12,449 nucleotides of DNA. It comes from a virus. Shown one piece after another: positions 80 to 7,424 of the stretch. The first letter of the stretch is position 1. The number at the start of each line of letters is the position of its first letter. The notes below the pieces were generated by a model. It saw only the letters and a program-made list of their open reading frames with translations, made no database searches and had not been told where the DNA came from. The stretch is from UHGV virus genome UHGV-0116345. One strand, 5' to 3'. The translations under genes were made by a program, and so were the position numbers.

Positions 80-703
80 TTATGCGACCTCGGAAGGAAG
101 TCCAATCATCTTATTCAAATCTTCTACCCGTAAAGCAGGAAGTGCTGTACTTGCTTTATCTGCTTCTTTTGGTAGCAACTCTTTGCTTTCAGGCCAAACT
201 TCAATAAGTCGCTTAACTGTTGTGACTGAGTTCAAAGCAGCCCATACATTTGATTCGATATCCTTTTTCTTGGCTTCAAGTTTTTGTTGCAATGCGCAGA
301 TTTCATCAAACCTTTTTGTTATTTCGTGTTCTGCGCTAAACATGCATTTATCTTTGGTCGGAGTAGGGAGCAATATATCTTCGCCGTTGCCGTCTTTCCC
401 ATATGAATACCAGCCAACCCTTCTGCCAGATACAGTCAGATAAATTGAAGTTGAACGGGCATCGCATGAGTAAAATGAACATCCCAGCTTTTCAAGTTCT
501 TCGCTTATAGCCATTAACTTGGATGATAACTGATCCACTTCCTCAGTTTTCTTTTTACCGCCAAACGCAACAACTCTGGCGTCAAGTGCAAGCTGGTTCT
601 TTAACTTTGTTACTTCTTCAAGCTCAGTGAAAACCCCAGATTTAATTAAAGCGTTACGAGCGATTTTCTCTTTCATTCTCGTAGTTAAGCGGATTGATGA
701 CAT
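80..703 (-). CDS. Hypothetical early-left (pL operon) protein, 207 aa, hydrophilic with predicted coiled-coil character; sits at the position lambda uses for ral/sieB-type accessory genes
   Basis: Long ORF in the track (80..763, TTG-initiated). I place the start at ATG 701-703, preceded by GAGAGGA with 6-nt spacing (MSSIRLTTRMKEKIARN...). Same strand and immediately downstream of the N-like gene. No family recognised. Confidence 0.6.
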   Translation of the reverse strand: MSSIRLTTRMKEKIARNALIKSGVFTELEEVTKLKNQLALDARVVAFGGKKKTEEVDQLSSKLMAISEELEKLGCSFYSCDARSTSIYLTVSGRRVGWYSYGKDGNGEDILLPTPTKDKCMFSAEHEITKRFDEICALQQKLEAKKKDIESNVWAALNSVTTVKRLIEVWPESKELLPKEADKASTALPALRVEDLNKMIGLPSEVA

Positions 704-764
704 ATTAATTCCTCTCAAATAAGTGGTTTGCTGCCTAATTTCATTTTCTGGCGACCAACACAAG

Positions 765-1037
765 TCATCTTGCTGTCAGTTGTTTGGATTTCCGGTAGCC
801 TGCCGCGTAAAGAGCTACGTTCGGAAGACAAGTTGAACCTTCATATTTTCTGGTCAACGTTGTCAGAGTTATCACTTCTGCTCTCATTGCTGGTTTGAGC
901 TTGCATTGCAAGACCACTCGTGAAGGGGTTGGCCTGTGTAGCTTGTCGGAGCTGATCGCCTCCTGACTTTGCAGATTTGCGCGACGAGCTCTACGGCGAG
1001 AAGCTGCGGTGCCTTTAAATTCTGTTTTTCTGGACAT
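765..1037 (-). CDS. N: N-like transcription antitermination protein (small basic protein with N-terminal arginine-rich motif), 90 aa
   Basis: ORF in track (765..1109); start refined to ATG 1035-1037 with GGGAGG RBS 5 nt upstream. N-terminus MSRKTEFKGTAASRRRARRANLQ is an arginine-rich motif typical of lambdoid N proteins. It is the first gene downstream of the nutL-like site on the leftward transcript. Call is by position and composition, not sequence identity to lambda N. Confidence 0.55.
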   Translation of the reverse strand: MSRKTEFKGTAASRRRARRANLQSQEAISSDKLHRPTPSRVVLQCKLKPAMRAEVITLTTLTRKYEGSTCLPNVALYAAGYRKSKQLTAR

Positions 1038-1136
1038 GGATTCCTCCCGAATAAACTTTGGCGATGCAATCTCGAAGCTCCTCCTGAGACGGTTGCTTCG
1101 GCATTGCATCCCACAGCTTATGTGGTTGGGTGATCT

Positions 1137-1473: not shown

Positions 1474-2226
1474 TTATGCTGCAAGTCTCTTAACCCAAGT
1501 CTCTCTTTTGGAGAATGGTAGAACTTGGCTTGATTCATGGAAGAGTAAGGAGAGTTGTTGCATTTGATCACCAATTGCTTCGCTGTCTATAACAACAAAT
1601 CTGTTGTTATACTCCTCACTTGAAGCTTTAAGATCAATTAGTTTCCCAAGCAATGAGTAAGCACTATTCCAGCTTCCTCCGTGTTTCACGCTTGATGTAA
1701 AAACGTATTTAGGTATGTCGGTTTTTATTGTTACAGGGACGGTAATTTGATGTCCACTCAAGCCATATACGTTTTCACGAAGAGAAAGTGCGTCTCTAAG
1801 CTCTGTGTGATATAGATAATCAATAACCATACTTTCAAACTTTTCAGCTTGAACTGGCTGATACCAGTCTAACGACAAAGTTGATGCGAGTATACCAGCT
1901 CTAATTATGTTCGATGTAATCGCACCGACATCCTTTTCTGTTGCCCAAGCAATGATTTCTCCTCGAGCATTGAGTTCTGCGCCTTCTTTAAGCAGTAATT
2001 GTCGTATCTCATCAAGTCGTTTTTTGGTAAGCGAGATCCCTCTTGCCTCCATATTCATTAAGGCATCGCATCTGTCACTAACTAAATACCTACCATTGAC
2101 TTCACGGATAAAGGCACCGACATGCTCTCCATCATCACAGTAAGTGAATGGACTGATAATTCTCAAGGTCTTGCCTATTGGATGGCATTCGAAACCTAGT
2201 TGTGAGATCACTGTTGAGCACATCAT
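1474..2226 (-). CDS. Unknown protein, 250 aa; downstream gene of the two-gene cassette at the rexAB-equivalent locus (candidate phage-exclusion/defence component)
   Basis: ORF in track. Start ATG overlaps the stop of the upstream gene (ATGATG / TGA overlap at 2223-2226), indicating translational coupling. No transmembrane segments and no catalytic motif I can assign. No resemblance to RexA/RexB by recollection. Confidence 0.7.
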   Translation of the reverse strand: MMCSTVISQLGFECHPIGKTLRIISPFTYCDDGEHVGAFIREVNGRYLVSDRCDALMNMEARGISLTKKRLDEIRQLLLKEGAELNARGEIIAWATEKDVGAITSNIIRAGILASTLSLDWYQPVQAEKFESMVIDYLYHTELRDALSLRENVYGLSGHQITVPVTIKTDIPKYVFTSSVKHGGSWNSAYSLLGKLIDLKASSEEYNNRFVVIDSEAIGDQMQQLSLLFHESSQVLPFSKRETWVKRLAA

Positions 2227-2780
2227 ATTCCAAACCCCATTTGCCCCGACTCATCTTCAAGCGGTAAAGGTATTCTCCCAGAGTAAGTTATGTTCAGATG
2301 TTTACAGAAGTAATTCCAATACCCTACCAGGTCATCTGGGTTTATGTCATCTTCGATTGGAAACGCTATTCTATCACTATAGTATCCAGCTTCTTCATAG
2401 TATACATGGTAGTGAGCACCGTAAATGATATCTTGGTACTTCGGATGATCGACCTTGTAACTATTCGTGTGTTTGTCAAAGTGATAGGTATCTACCGCGA
2501 AAACCCTCTTGTTATGATAGAAAGCAATAATATTTATTTTAGGGTAAGAAATCGGGTCATCAGGTTCTGAATCCTGATCTGGTTTCCATTTCAGTTCAAA
2601 CTTTAGCCCTTGTATAGGTATACAATCCTCATCCAAGGGGATGATATGGGCTTGTAGCCACATATCAGAGCGACTTGGTTTCTGTTTCCATTTAACGCCA
2701 GAAAAGTTAACTATTTTTTTACAATAAAGTACTTTATCAACTTCTACTTGGCTTGGCTGATAATCATCTATTTTTGCCAA
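2223..2780 (-). CDS. Unknown protein, 185 aa, acidic and His/Tyr-rich; upstream gene of the two-gene cassette at the rexAB-equivalent locus
   Basis: ORF in track; the first in-frame initiator after the upstream stop is TTG at 2778-2780 (next ATG is 39 codons in), so the start is uncertain. Codon usage is atypical for enterobacteria (about ten ATA Ile codons and several AGA/AGG) and the interval is visibly AT-rich versus flanking phage genes. Function unknown. Confidence 0.65.
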   Translation of the reverse strand: MAKIDDYQPSQVEVDKVLYCKKIVNFSGVKWKQKPSRSDMWLQAHIIPLDEDCIPIQGLKFELKWKPDQDSEPDDPISYPKINIIAFYHNKRVFAVDTYHFDKHTNSYKVDHPKYQDIIYGAHYHVYYEEAGYYSDRIAFPIEDDINPDDLVGYWNYFCKHLNITYSGRIPLPLEDESGQMGFGI

Positions 2781-2797: not shown

Positions 2798-2828
2798 ATT
2801 GTAGATAAAAGTGGTTTCATCACCCAAA
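2798..2828 (-). promoter_or_regulatory. Candidate sigma70 promoter for the cassette in the cI-cassette junction (-35 TTGGGT, 18-nt spacer, -10 TACAAT on the minus strand)
   Basis: Hexamers read directly on the minus strand overlapping the cI stop. Not validated; the cassette may also simply be read through from PRM. Confidence 0.3.
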
Positions 2829-3479
2829 CGTCTCTTCAGGCCATTGGCTGGCGATAACTTTCCCCACAACGGAACAACTCTCATTGCATGGGATCATTGG
2901 GTATTGTGGGTTTAGTGGCTGTAGAAACACCTGACCGCTATCCCTGATCAGTTTCTTGAAGGTAAATTCATCACCACCAAGTCTGGCTATGCAGAAATCG
3001 CCGGGCTCAACAGCTTGCTCAGGGTCAACCAGAATTAACATCCCGTCAGGAAAGCTGGGTTTGGAACCTGTTGGTGCGGTCATTGAGTTACCTTCAACCT
3101 CAAGCCAGAATGCAGAGTCACTGGCTTTTTTGGTTGTGCTTACCAATCTCTCCGCATCGCCTTTGGTAAAGGTTCTGAGTTCTGGAGAGAACATCCCAGC
3201 CTGAACATGAGAAAAAACAGGGTACTCATATTGTTTTTTAACTGGGGCCGATGAGTATTCGCCAACAGGTGAAAATGTCCCGTCGTGGTTGAATGATATG
3301 TTATCAATACCAAGGTATTTAAACACCACACCAATATCACTAAGAGATGGATGACGAGATCCGCGCAACCAGTGTCCAATCCCACCCTGCGTCATACCTA
3401 GCTCTTCGGCTAACTTCTCTTGAGTTATGCCGAGCTCTTTCATTCTGGATCTAGCCAGTTCATACCATTTCATTTTCAT
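2820..3479 (-). CDS. cI: CI-type prophage repressor: novel N-terminal HTH domain fused to a lambda-cI-like C-terminal oligomerisation/autocleavage domain
   Basis: C-terminal ~135 aa ([29 protein letters not shown]...[12 protein letters not shown]) match lambda cI as I recall it, including the Ala-Gly autocleavage site within VQAGMF. The N-terminal ~85 aa are unrelated to lambda cI but HTH-like. Start is either ATG 3479 (MKMKW, possibly leaderless from PRM) or ATG 3473 (AAGGA 7 nt upstream). Confidence 0.9.
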
Positions 3480-3590
3480 GTCCTTATTATTACGCTCTGT
3501 ACTGGAACCATCCATGCACAATGTGTATTTTTACTTGTATTCGCAAAGTACATATTGTATTTTTTTATTCGTGTTTACTATGGAGGGCAT
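3480..3590. promoter_or_regulatory. OR region: divergent PRM / PR promoters and operator sites between cI and cro
   Basis: 110-bp AT-rich divergent intergenic region. Repeated TGTA/TACA-containing elements (CTTGTATTCGCAAAGTACATAT at 3534-3555; ATGTGTATTTTTAC; ATTGTATTTTTTTAT). Candidate PR -35/-10 pairs are TTGTAT / TATTTT or TTTACT / TATTGT. Operators do not resemble lambda's, consistent with the non-lambda cI N-terminus. Confidence 0.6.
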
Positions 3591-3806: not shown

Positions 3807-3816
3807 TAAGCGGATC

Positions 3817-3862
3817 CGCTCTTTGTAACAACGGACATTCGTCCTACGTCGCTGAAAAGCGA
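3817..3862 (+). promoter_or_regulatory. nutR-like site: boxA (CGCTCTTTG), interbox hairpin (GGAC-ATTC-GTCC), boxB (TCGCTGAAAAGCGA)
   Basis: Read directly. Co-linear with the nutL-like element; the interbox hairpins differ in sequence but both remain self-complementary. Located just downstream of cro, as nutR is in lambda. Confidence 0.6.
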
Positions 3863-3947
3863 GTTCCAAGATATCTGACCAACTAAGGCCATATGCGTTT
3901 CCACGCATACCTTTCAACTAACTATTCACTATTGGAAATCTTAAGAA

Positions 3948-4244
3948 ATGGAAAGAACAAGTTACAGCAAACTATCACAGCGCGACGTTGATCGCGCAGA
4001 AACAGATTTACTCATCAACCTGTCAGCGATTACCCAGCGCGGTCTGGCAAAGATGATTGGCTGTCATGAATCGAAGATAAGCAGAACGGACTGGAGATTT
4101 ATTGCTTCGGTCTTGTGTGCTTTCGGAATGGCATCAGACATCAGTCCGATTAGCAGGGCTTTTAAGTATGCGCTTGATGGACTCACCAATAAAAAACGCC
4201 CGGCGGCAACCGAGCGTTCTGAACAAATCCAGATGGAATTCTGA
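3948..4244 (+). CDS. cII: CII-like transcriptional activator, 98 aa
   Basis: C-terminus LTNKKRPAATERSEQIQMEF matches the lambda CII C-terminus as recalled. The N-terminal part is diverged but contains an HTH-like segment. Position between cro/nutR and O. Confidence 0.85.
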   Translation: MERTSYSKLSQRDVDRAETDLLINLSAITQRGLAKMIGCHESKISRTDWRFIASVLCAFGMASDISPISRAFKYALDGLTNKKRPAATERSEQIQMEF

Positions 4245-4276
4245 GGTCATTACTGGATCAATCCACAGGAGTCATT

Positions 4277-5131
4277 ATGACAAATACAGCAAAAATACTC
4301 AACTTCTGCAGAGGTAACTTTGCCAAACAGGAGCGTAATGTGGCAGATCTCGATGATGGTTACGCCAGACTATCAAATATGCTGCTTGAGGCTTATTCAG
4401 GCGCAGATCTGACCAAGCGACAGTTTAAAGTGCTGCTTGCCATTCTGCGTAAAACCTATGGGTGGAATAAACCAATGGACAGAATCACCGATTCTCAACT
4501 TAGCGAGATTACAAAGTTACCCGTCAAACGGTGCAATGAAGCCAAGTTAGAACTCGTCAGAATGAATATTATCAAGCAGCAAGGCGGCATGTTTGGACCA
4601 AACAAAAACATCTCAGAATGGTGCATCCCTCAAAACGAGGGAAAATCCCCTAAAACGAGGGATAAAACATCCCTCAAATTGGGGGATTGCTATCCCTCAA
4701 AACAGGGGGACACAAAAGACACTATTACAAAAGAAAAAAGAAATAATAAAAACACTATGTCCGAAAGTGTCCGGACGGAGTGTGAAAAATCATCTGACCG
4801 TCACGAAGAAACCGACAAGGCATTCGAGGAAATATTCTGGTGTGCAGGCATGCGGAAAGCCGGGAAAAAAAACGCAGCTTCGGCATTCAGAACACAGTTC
4901 AGGGAATGGCGTAAAACTACCAGGGGTACGGCAAGCGAGTTTGCCACGATGCTGGCAGAAGACATCGCATGCAGGAATGGTAAGCAGTTCGGATTCGACA
5001 GGTTGTTACCATCGAGCTACCTGAACGGTCAGCGCTGGAACGACGAGAAGCCAGAAACTATTCAACCACAATCCAAACCATCATCCGCAATCACCGTATC
5101 GAAAACTGGCTACGTGTTTTTCGACAGGTGA
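4277..5131 (+). CDS. O: Replication initiator O (lambda-like N-terminal ori-binding domain, divergent C-terminal domain), 284 aa
   Basis: N-terminal ~170 aa (MTNTAKILNF.RGNFA.QERNVADLDDGYARLSNMLLEAYSGADLTKRQFKVLLAILRKTYGWNKPMDRITDSQLSEITKLPVKRCNEAKLELVRMNIIKQQGGMFGPNKNISEWCIPQNEGKSPKTRDKTSLKL...) match lambda O as recalled. The C-terminal third differs and the downstream partner is a primase-helicase, not lambda P. Confidence 0.9.
   Translation: MTNTAKILNFCRGNFAKQERNVADLDDGYARLSNMLLEAYSGADLTKRQFKVLLAILRKTYGWNKPMDRITDSQLSEITKLPVKRCNEAKLELVRMNIIKQQGGMFGPNKNISEWCIPQNEGKSPKTRDKTSLKLGDCYPSKQGDTKDTITKEKRNNKNTMSESVRTECEKSSDRHEETDKAFEEIFWCAGMRKAGKKNAASAFRTQFREWRKTTRGTASEFATMLAEDIACRNGKQFGFDRLLPSSYLNGQRWNDEKPETIQPQSKPSSAITVSKTGYVFFDR
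4624..4755. repeat. ori-lambda-type replication origin inside O: four ~19-21-bp iterons (ATCCCTCAAAACGAGGGA-like) followed by an AT-rich unwinding region
   Basis: Iterons read directly at about 4624-4644, 4645-4665, 4669-4688 and 4691-4710, each an imperfect palindrome TCCCTCAAA..GAGGGA. AT-rich tract 4711-4755 (acaaaagaaaaaagaaataataaaaacac). Confidence 0.85.
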
Positions 5132-5134
5132 ACC

Positions 5135-5242
5135 ATGAAATCAAAAATCAAATCGTTACTGGTCGCTGGTTATAACCACGGCTGGTTAAGTATTTCGTTT
5201 GTCGATTTCTGGTTTAAAAATCTCAATCTGAGGGAATCATGA
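5135..5242 (+). CDS. Possible micro-ORF (35 aa, MKSKIKSLLVAGYNHGWLSISFVDFWFKNLNLRES) bridging O and the primase-helicase
   Basis: ATG 5135 is 3 nt after the O stop, with AGGTGA 5 nt upstream; its stop TGA (5240-5242) overlaps the ATG of the next gene. Below the ORF-track length cut-off; coding status unproven. Confidence 0.2.
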   Translation: MKSKIKSLLVAGYNHGWLSISFVDFWFKNLNLRES

Positions 5243-7119
5243 CTCCAAGTGAACTTAGCTACCTGCTTTGGGCGCAGGTTGACAGGGTGGCTCCACACCT
5301 GTTGCCAAACGGCAAGAAAGAGGGGCATGAGTGGGTTGCCGGTAACGTCAACGGTGACAAGGGAAACAGCCTTAAGGTCAACCTTAGCGGCAAGAAAAAA
5401 TGGGCTGATTTCGCTGAGGGAGACGGCGGTGACATGCTTGATTTGTGGATGGCATGTCGTGGAATTAACCTGCATCAGGCTATGCAGGAAGCGAAAGCAT
5501 TTCTCGGTATCAAGGATGACGATCACCATTTCGATGCCAGACGTGAGAAGAAATTCTCCAGACCTGATCGCAAGAAAATCGCCCGCTACGTTACCAGAAC
5601 AGAATCCCATCTTGAGTACCTGCAATCGCGTGGCATATCGCCAGAAATCGTAAAGCGCTACGAGGTTGTCAGCGGCAAGGTGTGGAATGGAGAGCGGGAA
5701 CTGGATGCTCTGGTGATTCCGTACAAACGCGATGGTGAGTTGTTGCAGGTCAAGCGAATCAGCACTGAGCGCCCGGACGGGAAGAAAGTCATTATGGCAG
5801 AAGGTGATTGCGAACCTTGCCTGTTCGGATGGCAGGCTCTGGACGCTGGCGTGAGGGCGGTTGTGCTTTGCGAAGGCGAAATTGATTGTATGAGCTATGC
5901 GCAATACGGCATCTCGGCGTTATCCGTGCCGTTTGGTGGCGGGAAAGGCGCTAAGCAACAGTGGATTGAGTTTGAGTATCACAACCTCGACAGGTTTGAG
6001 GAAATATTCATCTCGATGGACGTTGATGATGTTGGTCGTGAAGCCGCAAGGGAAATCGCAAGCCGACTCGGTGAACATCGTTGCCGTCTTGTTACTCTGC
6101 CGTACAAAGACATCAACGAATGCCTGATGAACGGTGTTACCGAGGATGAAATCTGGCAGTACATCGGCACGGCATCCTACTTCGATCCTGAAGAACTCTA
6201 CAGCGCGCGAGAGTTTTACCAGGACACTATCAACGCTTTCTACGGCAAGCAGCAGTATCTGTTTAATCCACCGTGGGAATCTCTGGCAGATAAATTCCAG
6301 TTCCGTGAGGCAGAGTTGACGCTGGTCAATGGGGTGAACGGTCACGGAAAAACGGAGGTTGTCGGGCATATGGCACTTGAGGCAATGCGTCAGGGTGTGA
6401 AGACGTGCATCGCGTCACTTGAGCTGAAGCCTGGTATTCTCCTTAAGCGCCTTACCCGTCAGGCGACGTGCTGCAAGATGCCGCCAGTGCTGGAAATTGA
6501 CTCTGCATTTAAATTTTATGACGAAAGACTTTGGGTGTTTGGCCTGACCGGAACGGCGAAAGCCGACAGGCTGATCGAAATATTCGACTACGCTCGCCGC
6601 CGATACGGGATCCAGTTATTCATCATCGACAGCCTGATGAAATGTGGCATAGGCGACGATGACTATAACGGGCAGAAGGCGTTTGTTGACTCGATTTGCG
6701 ACTTCAAAAACAAAACAAACTCCCACGTCATTCTCGTTACTCACTCGCGAAAAGGAGACAGCGAAGAAAAACCAACCGGGAAAATGGACGTAAAAGGCTC
6801 TGGAGCGATAACAGACCTGACAGACAACCTTTTCATCATCTGGCGTAACAAGGCTCGCGAGAGAGCGTTACAGAGAGTTCAGAGTGGTGAAAAGATGTCA
6901 GAGAAGGACGAACAGCTACTGGCGTCTCCTGCATCTGTTTTGATGCTTGAAAAACAACGTAACGGCGAAGGTTGGGAAGGTGGTGTCCCGTTGTTCCTTG
7001 ACGAGCAATCGCACCAGTTCCTGCAACTTGAATCAGGATCGCCATATAGCTACATCGCCAATATGCCGAAATCGGAATATGACGAGGCGTGGCGACAGGA
7101 AAACGTGACGGAGTATTAA
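5239..7119 (+). CDS. Bifunctional DNA primase / replicative helicase (TOPRIM primase domain + DnaB/RecA-like ATPase with Walker A GVNGHGKT and Walker B FIIDS), 626 aa
   Basis: ATG 5239 with GAGGGA RBS. TOPRIM-like acidic motifs (VVLCEGEIDCMSYAQ ... ISMDVDDVGREAA). Walker A at LVNGVNGHGKTEV and Walker B at LFIIDSLMK in the C-terminal half. Occupies the position of lambda P. Confidence 0.85.
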   Translation: MTPSELSYLLWAQVDRVAPHLLPNGKKEGHEWVAGNVNGDKGNSLKVNLSGKKKWADFAEGDGGDMLDLWMACRGINLHQAMQEAKAFLGIKDDDHHFDARREKKFSRPDRKKIARYVTRTESHLEYLQSRGISPEIVKRYEVVSGKVWNGERELDALVIPYKRDGELLQVKRISTERPDGKKVIMAEGDCEPCLFGWQALDAGVRAVVLCEGEIDCMSYAQYGISALSVPFGGGKGAKQQWIEFEYHNLDRFEEIFISMDVDDVGREAAREIASRLGEHRCRLVTLPYKDINECLMNGVTEDEIWQYIGTASYFDPEELYSAREFYQDTINAFYGKQQYLFNPPWESLADKFQFREAELTLVNGVNGHGKTEVVGHMALEAMRQGVKTCIASLELKPGILLKRLTRQATCCKMPPVLEIDSAFKFYDERLWVFGLTGTAKADRLIEIFDYARRRYGIQLFIIDSLMKCGIGDDDYNGQKAFVDSICDFKNKTNSHVILVTHSRKGDSEEKPTGKMDVKGSGAITDLTDNLFIIWRNKARERALQRVQSGEKMSEKDEQLLASPASVLMLEKQRNGEGWEGGVPLFLDEQSHQFLQLESGSPYSYIANMPKSEYDEAWRQENVTEY

Positions 7120-7148
7120 ATGGCCATCTACATCACTGAGCTAATAAC

Positions 7149-7180
7149 AGGCCTGCTGGTAATCGCAGGCCTTTTTATTT
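7149..7180 (+). terminator. Rho-independent terminator (tR2-like) after the replication genes
   Basis: Stem aggcctgc (7149-7156) / gcaggcct (7165-7172), 8-nt loop, then ttttattt. Lies between the replication module and the nin region, as tR2 does in lambda. Confidence 0.7.
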
Positions 7181-7208
7181 GGGGGAGAGTAATTGGAGGA
7201 TTTAAGAA

Positions 7209-7424
7209 ATGAGTACGATAGCTGAGCTTGTCAGGGCTAATTTTCGTGAAGAGTTGGCGCGTTGGTATCGGTATCGTTCATCGTCCAGTTTGCCGCTTGA
7301 TGAGTTGTATGAGCATTCACCTGCCGCACGACGCTATCCGCGTGACCGTGTTCTTCGGCGGTTGTTCAGACTCAACAATGAGTTTCAGCGCAACAGAATA
7401 ATCCGGAGTCTGGATTTAAAGTGA
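7209..7424 (+). CDS. Hypothetical small basic protein, 71 aa (ren/nin-region position)
   Basis: ORF in track; ATG 7209 with GGAGGA RBS upstream. Arg-rich; no family recognised. Confidence 0.5.
   Translation: MSTIAELVRANFREELARWYRYRSSSSLPLDELYEHSPAARRYPRDRVLRRLFRLNNEFQRNRIIRSLDLK

Follow-up and report, generated by a model that had tools for sequence, protein, structure and literature searches.

The segment at positions 4277-7119 raises the question of how a phage with an initiator and an origin like those of lambda initiates replication when a primase-helicase gene stands in the place of P. The segment was analysed within a window of 12,449 nt, which is the whole stretch of DNA available from this virus genome (UHGV-0116345). 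It contains an intact three-gene replication unit of the ES18 type, carried by a lambdoid E. coli prophage and composed, in this order, of a chimeric O gene, a gene of 35 codons and a gene encoding a primase-helicase of 626 residues (Table 1). The three ORFs are full length, and the flanking early and late genes are intact. Neither P nor a homologue of the lambda O C-domain was detected by a six-frame search of the entire window, and no DnaC-like or DnaB-like gene was found there in the ORF list or by six-frame search. This module is already known from ES18 (gp59-gp60-gp61), epsilon34, phi24B ("O2/P2") and the Stx-phage type "Eru5", and the arrangement has reportedly been described since 2005 for ES18 and its relatives. 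The segment by itself reveals no new biology, and its main value is as a clear illustration of the mosaicism of lambdoid phages.

Table 1. Features of the replication module and of its borders (positions in the window)
Feature	Position	Strand	Evidence
Lambda-derived left arm (cII end, oop region, O N-domain, four iterons, most of the A+T-rich tract)	4182..4743	+	98.4% nt identity to lambda, 562 bp
Chimeric initiator O, 284 aa	4277..5131	+	ORF list; Phage_rep_O / TIGR01610; 95% identical to ES18 gp59
Four lambda-type iterons	4625-4644, 4645-4664, 4669-4688, 4692-4711	.	Repeat family D1; identical to annotated lambda iterons 1-4
Crossover zone (right half of iteron 4 and A+T-rich tract)	4698..4743	.	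46-bp overlap of BLAST segments 4182-4743 and 4698-7189
A+T-rich tract of ori	4712..4760	.	Composition; aligned with lambda, ES18, Sf101 and phi24B origins
O C-terminal domain, aa 156-284, non-lambda	4742..5128	+	phrog_33384, phrog_270; no lambda O similarity
Conserved 35-aa gene (MKSKIKSLLVAGYNHGWLSISFVDFWFKNLNLRES), ES18 gp60 equivalent	5135..5242	+	phrog_21848, E 4e-26
Bifunctional primase-helicase of T7 gp4/Twinkle type, 626 aa	5239..7119	+	Pfam; phrog_239, E 2.7e-171; T7 gp4; Twinkle; Foldseek
Terminator-like element (G+C hairpin, then T run)	7149..7172	+	Consensus scan only

The first-pass annotation had described the N-terminal domain of O and the four iterons as lambda-like, and both descriptions are borne out. 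Residues 1 to 155 of O are identical to those of lambda O at 153 of 155 positions (99%), and the likeness stops at residue 155 instead of running throughout the protein. Within this part, residues 22-115 correspond to the Pfam family Phage_rep_O (PF04492, E 3e-36; 124.3 bits for a cut-off of 28.7) and to TIGR01610 (E 5e-39; 132.6 bits for a cut-off of 45.5). The iteron 17-mer TCCCTCAAAACGAGGGA, searched with up to three mismatches, occurs four times for 0.04 expected occurrences, and none of 200 shuffled sequences reached four. The DNA identity to the lambda ori is unbroken through all four iterons and continues into the A+T-rich tract, which contains 80% A+T and 63% A on the + strand. The iterons are the predicted O-binding sites of the origin and the tract is presumed to be the unwinding element. 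The typical features of a lambda O, an origin-binding N-domain and iterons located within its own gene and followed by an A+T-rich tract, are therefore present, whereas the P-interacting C-domain of lambda type and the downstream P gene are absent.

The remaining part of O had been noted as a C-terminal third different from that of lambda; the difference stands, but the part concerned represents 129 of the 284 residues (45%) and not a third. A profile comparison of this domain family with that of the lambda O C-domain revealed no homology (hhalign probability 0.3%). The domain has no match in Pfam or NCBIfam and is recognized by the profiles phrog_33384 (E 8e-89) and phrog_270. Its helical core contains the motif FExIFWxAGMRK...QFGFDxLxPxxYLNxxRWxDE and is followed by the C-terminal tail ITVSKTGYVFFDR. 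The AF2 model is a helical bundle of modest quality (mean pLDDT 65), owing to a shallow alignment, since two large protein searches returned mainly near-identical or truncated proteins.

The gene located between O and the primase-helicase had been overlooked in the first reading of the sequence. In each of 10 lineages it has exactly 35 codons, with 52-100% identity, and it invariably touches or overlaps the start of its downstream neighbour. Here its stop codon overlaps the ATG of the primase-helicase gene (ATGA), and the two genes are translationally coupled. An iteron-like 15-mer at 5222-5236, together with its inverted-repeat pairings with the iterons, was considered as a fifth O site and rejected, because it coincides with the Shine-Dalgarno sequence and the stop-start junction of these two genes and varies among relatives as coding and ribosome-binding sequences do.

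The 626-aa protein had been proposed to be a TOPRIM primase fused to a DnaB-like helicase, and the fusion itself is confirmed. The N-terminal half comprises a cysteine-less zinc-ribbon-like domain (residues 1 to about 95) and a primase with a TOPRIM domain (about 105-310), and the C-terminal half comprises an SF4 helicase (about 355-594) followed by an acidic, aromatic-rich tail. In profile searches, Toprim_2 is matched at residues 209-296 with 47.1 bits (cut-off 22.1) and AAA_25 with 28.0 (cut-off 27), but DnaB_C reaches only 23.8 and stays under its cut-off of 27. T7 gp4 is matched over residues 192-539, that is over both domains (E 2.7e-23), and Twinkle is matched with an E-value of 6.5e-14. 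With Foldseek, the best matches of the structural model are Twinkle and gp4 (E about 1e-19 each) and the Aquifex DnaG. The TOPRIM residues E212, D261, D263 and D291 and the helicase residues K371, E395, D464, H502 and R536 are invariant in 35 homologues (69-99% identity) and align with the motifs of T7 gp4. The protein thus displays the conserved Glu and the DxD of TOPRIM together with the Walker A and B motifs, the phosphate-sensor His and the Arg finger of the helicase.

Several known systems share parts of this organization. With phage lambda, the prophage has in common, in nearly identical form, residues 1-155 of O, all four iterons and the greater part of the A+T-rich tract, as well as the order cII-O and the location of the origin inside O; the 129 C-terminal residues of O are unrelated, and the 35-aa gene and the primase-helicase take the place of P. 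Phage ES18 (GenBank AY736146), as well as epsilon34, g341c and vB_SosS_Oslo, has these three genes, arranged alike. In ES18 (genes 59-60-61), the N-domain of O resembles that of lambda, the four lambda-type iterons bear the annotation "similar to lambda ori", and the C-domain is the non-lambda one found here; the 35-aa gp60 follows, and then a protein of 626 residues annotated as "putative primase/helicase similar to T7 gene 4". The identity to ES18 is 89.6% at the nucleotide level and 95%, 97% and 94% for the O, 35-aa and primase-helicase proteins, and the sequence of the A+T tract at the joint differs slightly in the prophage. All four phages and others are viable and display the same architecture at about 90% nucleotide identity. 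A published description of epsilon34 gp50 limits its likeness to lambda gpO to the N-terminal region (PMC2629481).

The phi24B "O2/P2" or "Eru5" type (reference Stx2a_F403, to which 83% of the query matched at 97.3%) has the same O C-domain (95% identity), a 35-aa gene that is 71% identical and, with its intein excluded, the same primase-helicase at 96-99% identity. It differs by its initiator N-domain, which is of the HTH_36 family and associated with three 21-bp GC-rich repeats, where the prophage has Phage_rep_O and lambda iterons. The phi24B "P" protein was described as a TOPRIM primase plus GP4d helicase, and an intein is located after residue 372 in this protein (PMC3430580). T7 gp4 and Twinkle, the top structural matches, have in common with the 626-aa protein a TOPRIM primase located N-terminal to an SF4 RecA-type helicase with aligned catalytic residues. 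The 626-aa protein differs from them by the lack of a Cys4 zinc site, by about 90 additional C-terminal residues and by its position behind an origin-binding initiator in a module without a polymerase gene. The pair of P22 genes 18 and 12 is similar in that a lambdoid initiator with internal iterons precedes a phage-encoded replicative helicase and not a loader (PMC8022706, PMC10307801); gp12 is, however, a DnaB-type helicase without primase that uses the host DnaG, whereas the helicase is here of the gp4 type and fused to a primase.

The association of the C-domain with its neighbours was followed among relatives. In 80 of 80 IMG/VR loci, as far as the contigs extend, the 35-aa gene and the primase-helicase directly follow the C-domain, and the three elements diverge in parallel in six more distant lineages, namely prophages of Citrobacter, Erwinia, Xenorhabdus and Proteus and the phages Fraca and LMessi. 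Between genera, the identity is 61-79% for the primase-helicase, 49-59% for the C-domain and 52-67% for the 35-aa gene. In protein databases, the C-domain is represented by about 466 clusters and the primase-helicase family by at least 2,392. The three elements are preceded by no fewer than four unrelated cassettes of N-domain and iterons, which include the lambda iterons (ATCCCTCAAAACGAGGGA, four copies), the Sf101 iterons (TGTCACCAAAACGGTGACA, four copies) and the phi24B repeats (GGGGTGGGGCAGGAGCTGCCC, three copies, together with an N-domain of the HTH_36 family); the diverged elements of Fraca and LMessi follow an N-domain unrelated to lambda O. This joint travel and co-divergence lend indirect support to a functional coupling of the three elements. 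Among the eight lineages compared in which the initiator is partnered with a primase-helicase, six have in common an initiator tail of the form (I/V)TVSKxG(Y/L)V(F/Y). The initiators of Fraca and LMessi have other endings, and the tail is also missing from relatives partnered with loaders, a distribution which suggests that it may be a partner-specific contact.

The earlier proposal that the new C-domain recruits the phage helicase-primase agrees with this linkage, with the co-divergence and with the variety of cassettes. It agrees less well with two other observations. In phages of Vibrio and Pseudomonas, the gene after C-domain relatives of 37-44% identity encodes no primase-helicase but a loader, either DnaC-like or of the P-like type (phrog_109, E 2e-8 and 3e-4), so that the helical core of the domain is not specific to a primase-helicase partner. 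Moreover, a primase-helicase with 73% identity occurs in another E. coli element where neither such an initiator nor the 35-aa gene is found upstream.

With these points considered, the account to which we give moderate credence is that of a recombinant module that delivers its own helicase to a lambda-type origin. As in lambda, the N-domain, identical to that of lambda, would bind the four iterons, form an O-some and open the neighbouring A+T-rich tract. By itself or together with the 35-aa peptide, the non-lambda C-domain would then bring in the phage gp4-like hexameric helicase in replacement of P and of the host DnaB. The 626-aa protein would unwind the DNA and probably also prime it by means of its TOPRIM primase, the primers being passed to the host DNA polymerase III. 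Since the helicase would be the phage's own, the host DnaB and its DnaC- or P-type loading would be dispensable, and probably DnaG too; this independence from the host is judged only by the domain content of the module. No experiments on this module, and none on its dependence on DnaB or DnaG, were found in the literature searched, in which ES18 was represented by its GenBank annotation and by later papers. A more speculative version, which we consider rather doubtful, is that the 35-aa peptide and the O tail compose a minimal adaptor for loading a ring helicase of gp4/Twinkle type whose primase carries a zinc-less ribbon domain. Such an adaptor would make the loading of gp4-like SF4 helicases depend on an initiator, a route documented for no system in this analysis.

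The C-domain could also make no contact with the helicase. T7 gp4 assembles on single-stranded DNA without a dedicated loader, and the gp4-like helicase might likewise load itself on the strand exposed by the O-some; alternatively, the 35-aa peptide, which is encoded by a conserved gene in translational coupling with that of the helicase, might be the real adaptor. The C-domain would then have a general role (oligomerisation or single-strand binding) similar to that of DnaD-type replisome organisers, in line with the loaders of its distant relatives and with the names of related PHROG families, which include "primosomal protein" and "DnaD-like helicase loader". The co-divergence of the three elements, left unseparated in all the close loci and in the six diverged lineages, and the distribution of the tail between initiators partnered with a primase-helicase and those partnered with loaders argue against this alternative, and we regard it as fairly unlikely.

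A single cysteine (C73) is found in the first 100 residues of the fused primase, which excludes a gp4-like Cys4 zinc site, and no conserved Cys quartet occurs there in the 35 homologues nor in Fraca; the primase competence of the protein is consequently not certain. Searches with residues 1-200 against Pfam (E up to 10) and against the PDB sequences detected nothing, and only the structural model and NCBIfam dnaG/PRK07078 matches link this region to primase zinc-binding domains. In metazoan Twinkle, the loss of the zinc ligands accompanies the loss of primase activity. With a degenerate zinc-binding domain, the 626-aa protein could be a replicative helicase only, with an inactive or accessory primase, and the host DnaG would prime as it does with the P22 gene 12 helicase. 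Several observations make this improbable. The metal-binding residues of TOPRIM and the basic residues R164, K172, R173, R178, K182 and K183 of the primase N-subdomain are invariant across 69-99% identity, which argues for selection on catalysis. The N-terminal domain shows good conservation and its model, a ribbon with helices, is of high confidence (pLDDT 82-90), and the zinc-binding and polymerase domains of the Aquifex DnaG are a structural match.

Concerning the origin of the chimera, the exchange of the C-domain that the first-pass annotation had postulated is visible in the DNA. Positions 4600-4743 are 100% identical to several lambda isolates, and the right arm (4698-7189) displays 98.2% nucleotide identity to phage Sf101 and is also carried by mEp043 at 98%. 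O is therefore a recombinant, with a crossover located in a 46-bp stretch of ori common to lambda-like and Sf101/mEp043-like parents, and many database matches start at 4698 or 4747. The left arm is 98-100% lambda and the right arm is an E. coli Sf101/mEp043 allele, which suggests a separate recent crossover and not that the module descends directly from that of ES18. The right arm is common: in a set of 5,426 complete genomes of E. coli, about 1,500 match some part of it. The exact lambda/Sf101 junction is rare (2 of these 5,426 genomes), as would be expected of a non-functional accident in a decaying prophage where the lambda N-domain and a foreign C-domain are incompatible, but this explanation is very improbable given the lambda-N/ES18-C architecture of at least six isolated Salmonella phages, the three full-length reading frames and the intact early and late genes nearby.

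The module illustrates two exchangeable cassettes, one for origin recognition (N-domain and iterons) and the other for helicase delivery (C-domain, 35-aa gene and primase-helicase), which are exchanged by recombination within the A+T-rich tract of the origin. The right arm also drives the replication of some Stx2a phages, those of the "Eru5" type found in severe EHEC outbreaks (PMC8951638). Because the right arm is common and drives such phages, a real bypass of DnaB and DnaG could bear on how the induction of toxin phages is understood. No match was obtained in the window by Rfam or tRNA scans, and a promoter scan of the window gave a number of sites not above that of shuffled sequence. The terminator-like hairpin starts 30 nt past the stop codon of the primase-helicase gene and is a possible end of the replication transcription unit.

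The replication module of the window is a recombinant, which pairwise BLAST resolves into a lambda-like left arm and a right arm close to Shigella phage Sf101 and coliphage mEp043 (Table). A stretch of 46 bp, made up of the right half of iteron 4 together with the A+T-rich tract, belongs to both segments; this sequence is common to the two parents, which places the crossover inside it. Database matches start at 4698 for hundreds of E. coli prophages and several phages, and at 4747 for Stx2 phages. Residues 1-155 of the initiator O display 153/155 identities with lambda O (BLASTP), residues 22-115 being covered by Phage_rep_O (E 3e-36) and TIGR01610 (E 5e-39); beyond residue 155, BLASTP against lambda O gave nothing significant. 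The iterons are 20 bp each (4 occurrences of the 17-mer core with <=3 mismatches, 0.04 expected), and the DNA identity with ori-lambda spans all four and runs into the A+T-rich tract (80% A+T). The first-pass annotation, which had described a lambda-like O N-terminal domain and iterons, a swapped O C-terminal domain and a TOPRIM primase fused to a helicase in place of P, was accurately read and every described element is present; it had missed a conserved small gene between O and the primase-helicase. The C-terminal portion that it took as different from lambda does differ, but represents 129 of the 284 residues (45%) and not a third.

Features of the window and segments shared with other phages
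Feature	Position	Strand	Remark
Nmad5-family gene	80-763	-	early-left operon
N	765-1109	-	gene order in window
Two-gene insert	1474-2780	-	between N and cI (gene order)
cI	2820-3521	-	gene order in window
cro, cII			after cI, before O (gene order)
phi24B-like cII sequence	3816-4240		94.6% identity
Second mosaic joint	~4182-4240		phi24B-like cII sequence meets lambda-like sequence
Lambda-like segment	4182-4743		98.4% identity
Strong terminator-like hairpin	4220-4193	-	in lambda-derived segment
Promoter-like site	4302-4274	-	in lambda-derived segment
O	4277-5131	+	after cII (gene order)
Four iterons	4625-4711		
Sf101-like segment	4698-7189		98.2% identity
mEp043 match	4698-7119		98.1% identity
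35-codon gene	5135-5242	+	between O and 626-aa gene
626-aa gene	5239-7119	+	after 35-codon gene
Hairpin	7149-7172	+	30 nt past primase-helicase stop
DUF7301 gene	7209-7424		next after hairpin
NinB, Dam, antirepressor, RusA, Q-like gene, lysis genes			after DUF7301, in this order

An alignment of four origins revealed three unrelated left cassettes joined to one right arm: the lambda iterons ATCCCTCAAAACGAGGGA (x4), the Sf101 iterons TGTCACCAAAACGGTGACA (x4) accompanied by an O N-domain that shares 49% identity with that of lambda, and the phi24B repeats GGGGTGGGGCAGGAGCTGCCC (x3) with an HTH_36 N-domain. In phages Fraca and LMessi, a diverged right arm carries an N-domain of a fourth type (phrog_1701). 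The origin is thus the boundary between an origin-recognition cassette and a helicase-delivery cassette. The module itself is already known. In Salmonella phage ES18 (AY736146), gp59 is annotated as 'similar to phage lambda gpO' with an origin 'similar to lambda ori', followed by gp60 and by gp61, a 'putative primase/helicase; similar to phage T7 gene 4'. In epsilon34, the initiator shares 94% identity with lambda gpO residues 17-148 in its N-terminal region and is neighboured by the genes of the ES18 replication region (PMC2629481). The 'P' of phi24B is described as combining a TOPRIM primase with a GP4d helicase and carrying an intein, the pair being named O2/P2 (PMC3430580); the same block is called Eru5 in the classification of Stx phages (PMC8951638), and an O-like initiator with an ES18-like 'nonhomologous primase-helicase' is reported among Anderson typing phages (PMC10307801). 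Only the junction between a near-lambda left arm and an E. coli Sf101-type right arm is specific to the window; it was detected in 2 of 5,426 complete E. coli genomes.

The C-domain (O residues 156-284) matched neither a Pfam nor an NCBIfam family and belongs to phrog_33384 and phrog_270. The PHROGs matched by the lambda C-domain form a disjoint set and the profile-profile comparison of the two domains gives a probability of 0.3%, so the replacement appears non-homologous within the reach of these methods. Relatives of the lambda C-domain have either P or an SPP1-type loader plus helicase downstream. Relatives of the window C-domain form two groups according to the downstream gene: in enterobacteria, the 35-aa gene and the primase-helicase follow, whereas the initiators of Vibrio phages PVA1 and D65 (41-44% C-domain identity) precede overlapping genes for 213-aa proteins with weak similarity to P-like loaders (phrog_109, E 3e-4 and 2e-8) and that of Pseudomonas phage Skulduggery (37%) has a DnaC-like loader downstream. 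In PVA1 and D65 (L086 3096-4395 and L087 3129-4365), the initiators are HTH_36 proteins bearing a diverged copy of the C-domain core; the gene for the 213-aa protein of PVA1 carries no annotation. The C-terminal tail (I/V)TVSKxG(Y/L)V(F/Y) is found in the initiators of 6 of the 8 lineages compared, those of Fraca and LMessi ending differently, and is absent from the loader-partnered relatives. It may distinguish most primase-helicase-partnered initiators, which is a lead only, from few sequences.

The small gene encodes MKSKIKSLLVAGYNHGWLSISFVDFWFKNLNLRES, matches phrog_21848 (E 4e-26) and is the counterpart of ES18 gp60. In 10/10 lineages its length is exactly 35 codons, with a stop codon overlapping or abutting the start of the primase-helicase, and the pattern MK..(I/L)K.(L/M)L..GY..G.L...(F/V)V...F...(L/F).L(R/K).. 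is kept down to 52% identity. The C-domain, the 35-aa gene and the primase-helicase are adjacent in this order in all 80 IMG/VR loci coding for the C-domain, wherever the contig extends. Parallel divergence of the three products is seen in prophages of Citrobacter, Erwinia, Xenorhabdus and Proteus as well as in phages Fraca and LMessi (identities of 61-79% for the primase-helicase, 49-59% for the C-domain and 52-67% for the small protein). The right arm is a three-gene unit. An insert of ~491 bp separates the 35-aa gene from the primase-helicase in loci L037, L049, L052, L065, L072 and L078 (~5498-5989) and in E. coli TUM1880, where it is annotated as a NUMOD4 HNH endonuclease and is probably a homing endonuclease.

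In the 626-aa protein, Toprim_2 (residues 209-296) and AAA_25 exceed the Pfam cut-offs and DnaB_C is slightly under. The protein belongs to phrog_239 'DNA primase/helicase' (E 2.7e-171) and, among solved structures, matches T7 gp4 (E 2.7e-23, residues 192-539 against 138-507) and Twinkle. Neither lambda P nor the lambda O C-domain was found by a six-frame search of the window. The TOPRIM residues E212, D261, D263 and D291 and the helicase residues K371 (Walker A), E395, D464 (Walker B), H502 and R536 are invariant across 35 aligned homologues (69-99% identity) and align with the catalytic motifs of T7 gp4, to whose specific catalytic residues we presume they correspond. The AlphaFold2 model (mean pLDDT 69.5, 82-90 over the N-terminal 190 residues) has as best Foldseek matches Twinkle, T7 gp4 and the zinc-binding plus polymerase domains of Aquifex DnaG. 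In phi24B (L089 3111-4099) and Stx2 phages, an in-frame insertion of ~330 residues, an intein according to the phi24B genome paper and missing from the window copy, interrupts the protein after residue 372. A 73%-identical primase-helicase occurs in a different element of E. coli GCA_014904275.2 (L095 2845-5884), with an integrase nearby and a 372-aa phrog_704 'exonuclease'-like protein upstream, without O-type initiator or 35-aa gene.

The recombinant structure, domain identities, linkage and conservation are established; the mechanism is inferred. Since it is nearly identical to lambda O, of which the N-terminal 162 residues are cited in PMC2629481 as binding the origin, the N-domain would bind the iterons and open the A+T-rich tract as in lambda. 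Recruitment of the phage helicase would fall to the C-domain, perhaps aided by the 35-aa peptide, and the helicase-primase would substitute for DnaB, for its loading by P or DnaC, and probably for DnaG too. We favour this whole scheme with some reserve; the similar interpretation of the first-pass annotation is reasonable and only partly supported. It is rather unlikely that the helicase loads itself or that the peptide is the adaptor, the C-domain having a general role. The N-terminal ~95 residues of the primase-helicase, modelled as a small sheet with helices resembling a primase zinc ribbon, contain a single cysteine, and a Cys4 site is absent from every family member checked, so that primase activity is likely but not assured; a helicase-only protein still requiring DnaG, which overlaps the favoured scheme, is a little less probable than self-loading or a peptide adaptor. 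A dead chimera is very improbable and is contradicted by isolated phages that share this architecture.

The window represents the early region of a lambdoid prophage. Over 4277-7119, E. coli strain E10 carries a 100% identical chromosomal sequence; there, the RefSeq genes 'replication protein' and 'toprim domain-containing protein' are flanked by a CII-family gene and nin-region genes. The G+C-rich hairpin with a T run downstream of the primase-helicase is terminator-like by consensus only, and the minus-strand promoter-like and terminator-like pair (4193-4302) agrees in position only with the lambda oop antisense RNA unit. The Nmad5-family protein is of the 'nucleotide modification associated' type (Pfam E 5.9e-71). 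The two-gene cassette occupies the position of rexAB in lambda, encodes a 250-aa DUF1828 protein and a 185-aa protein with a weak DUF6978 match, and matches the PADLOC candidate defence system PDC-M24 (B: E 4.7e-10; A: E 4.8e-4).
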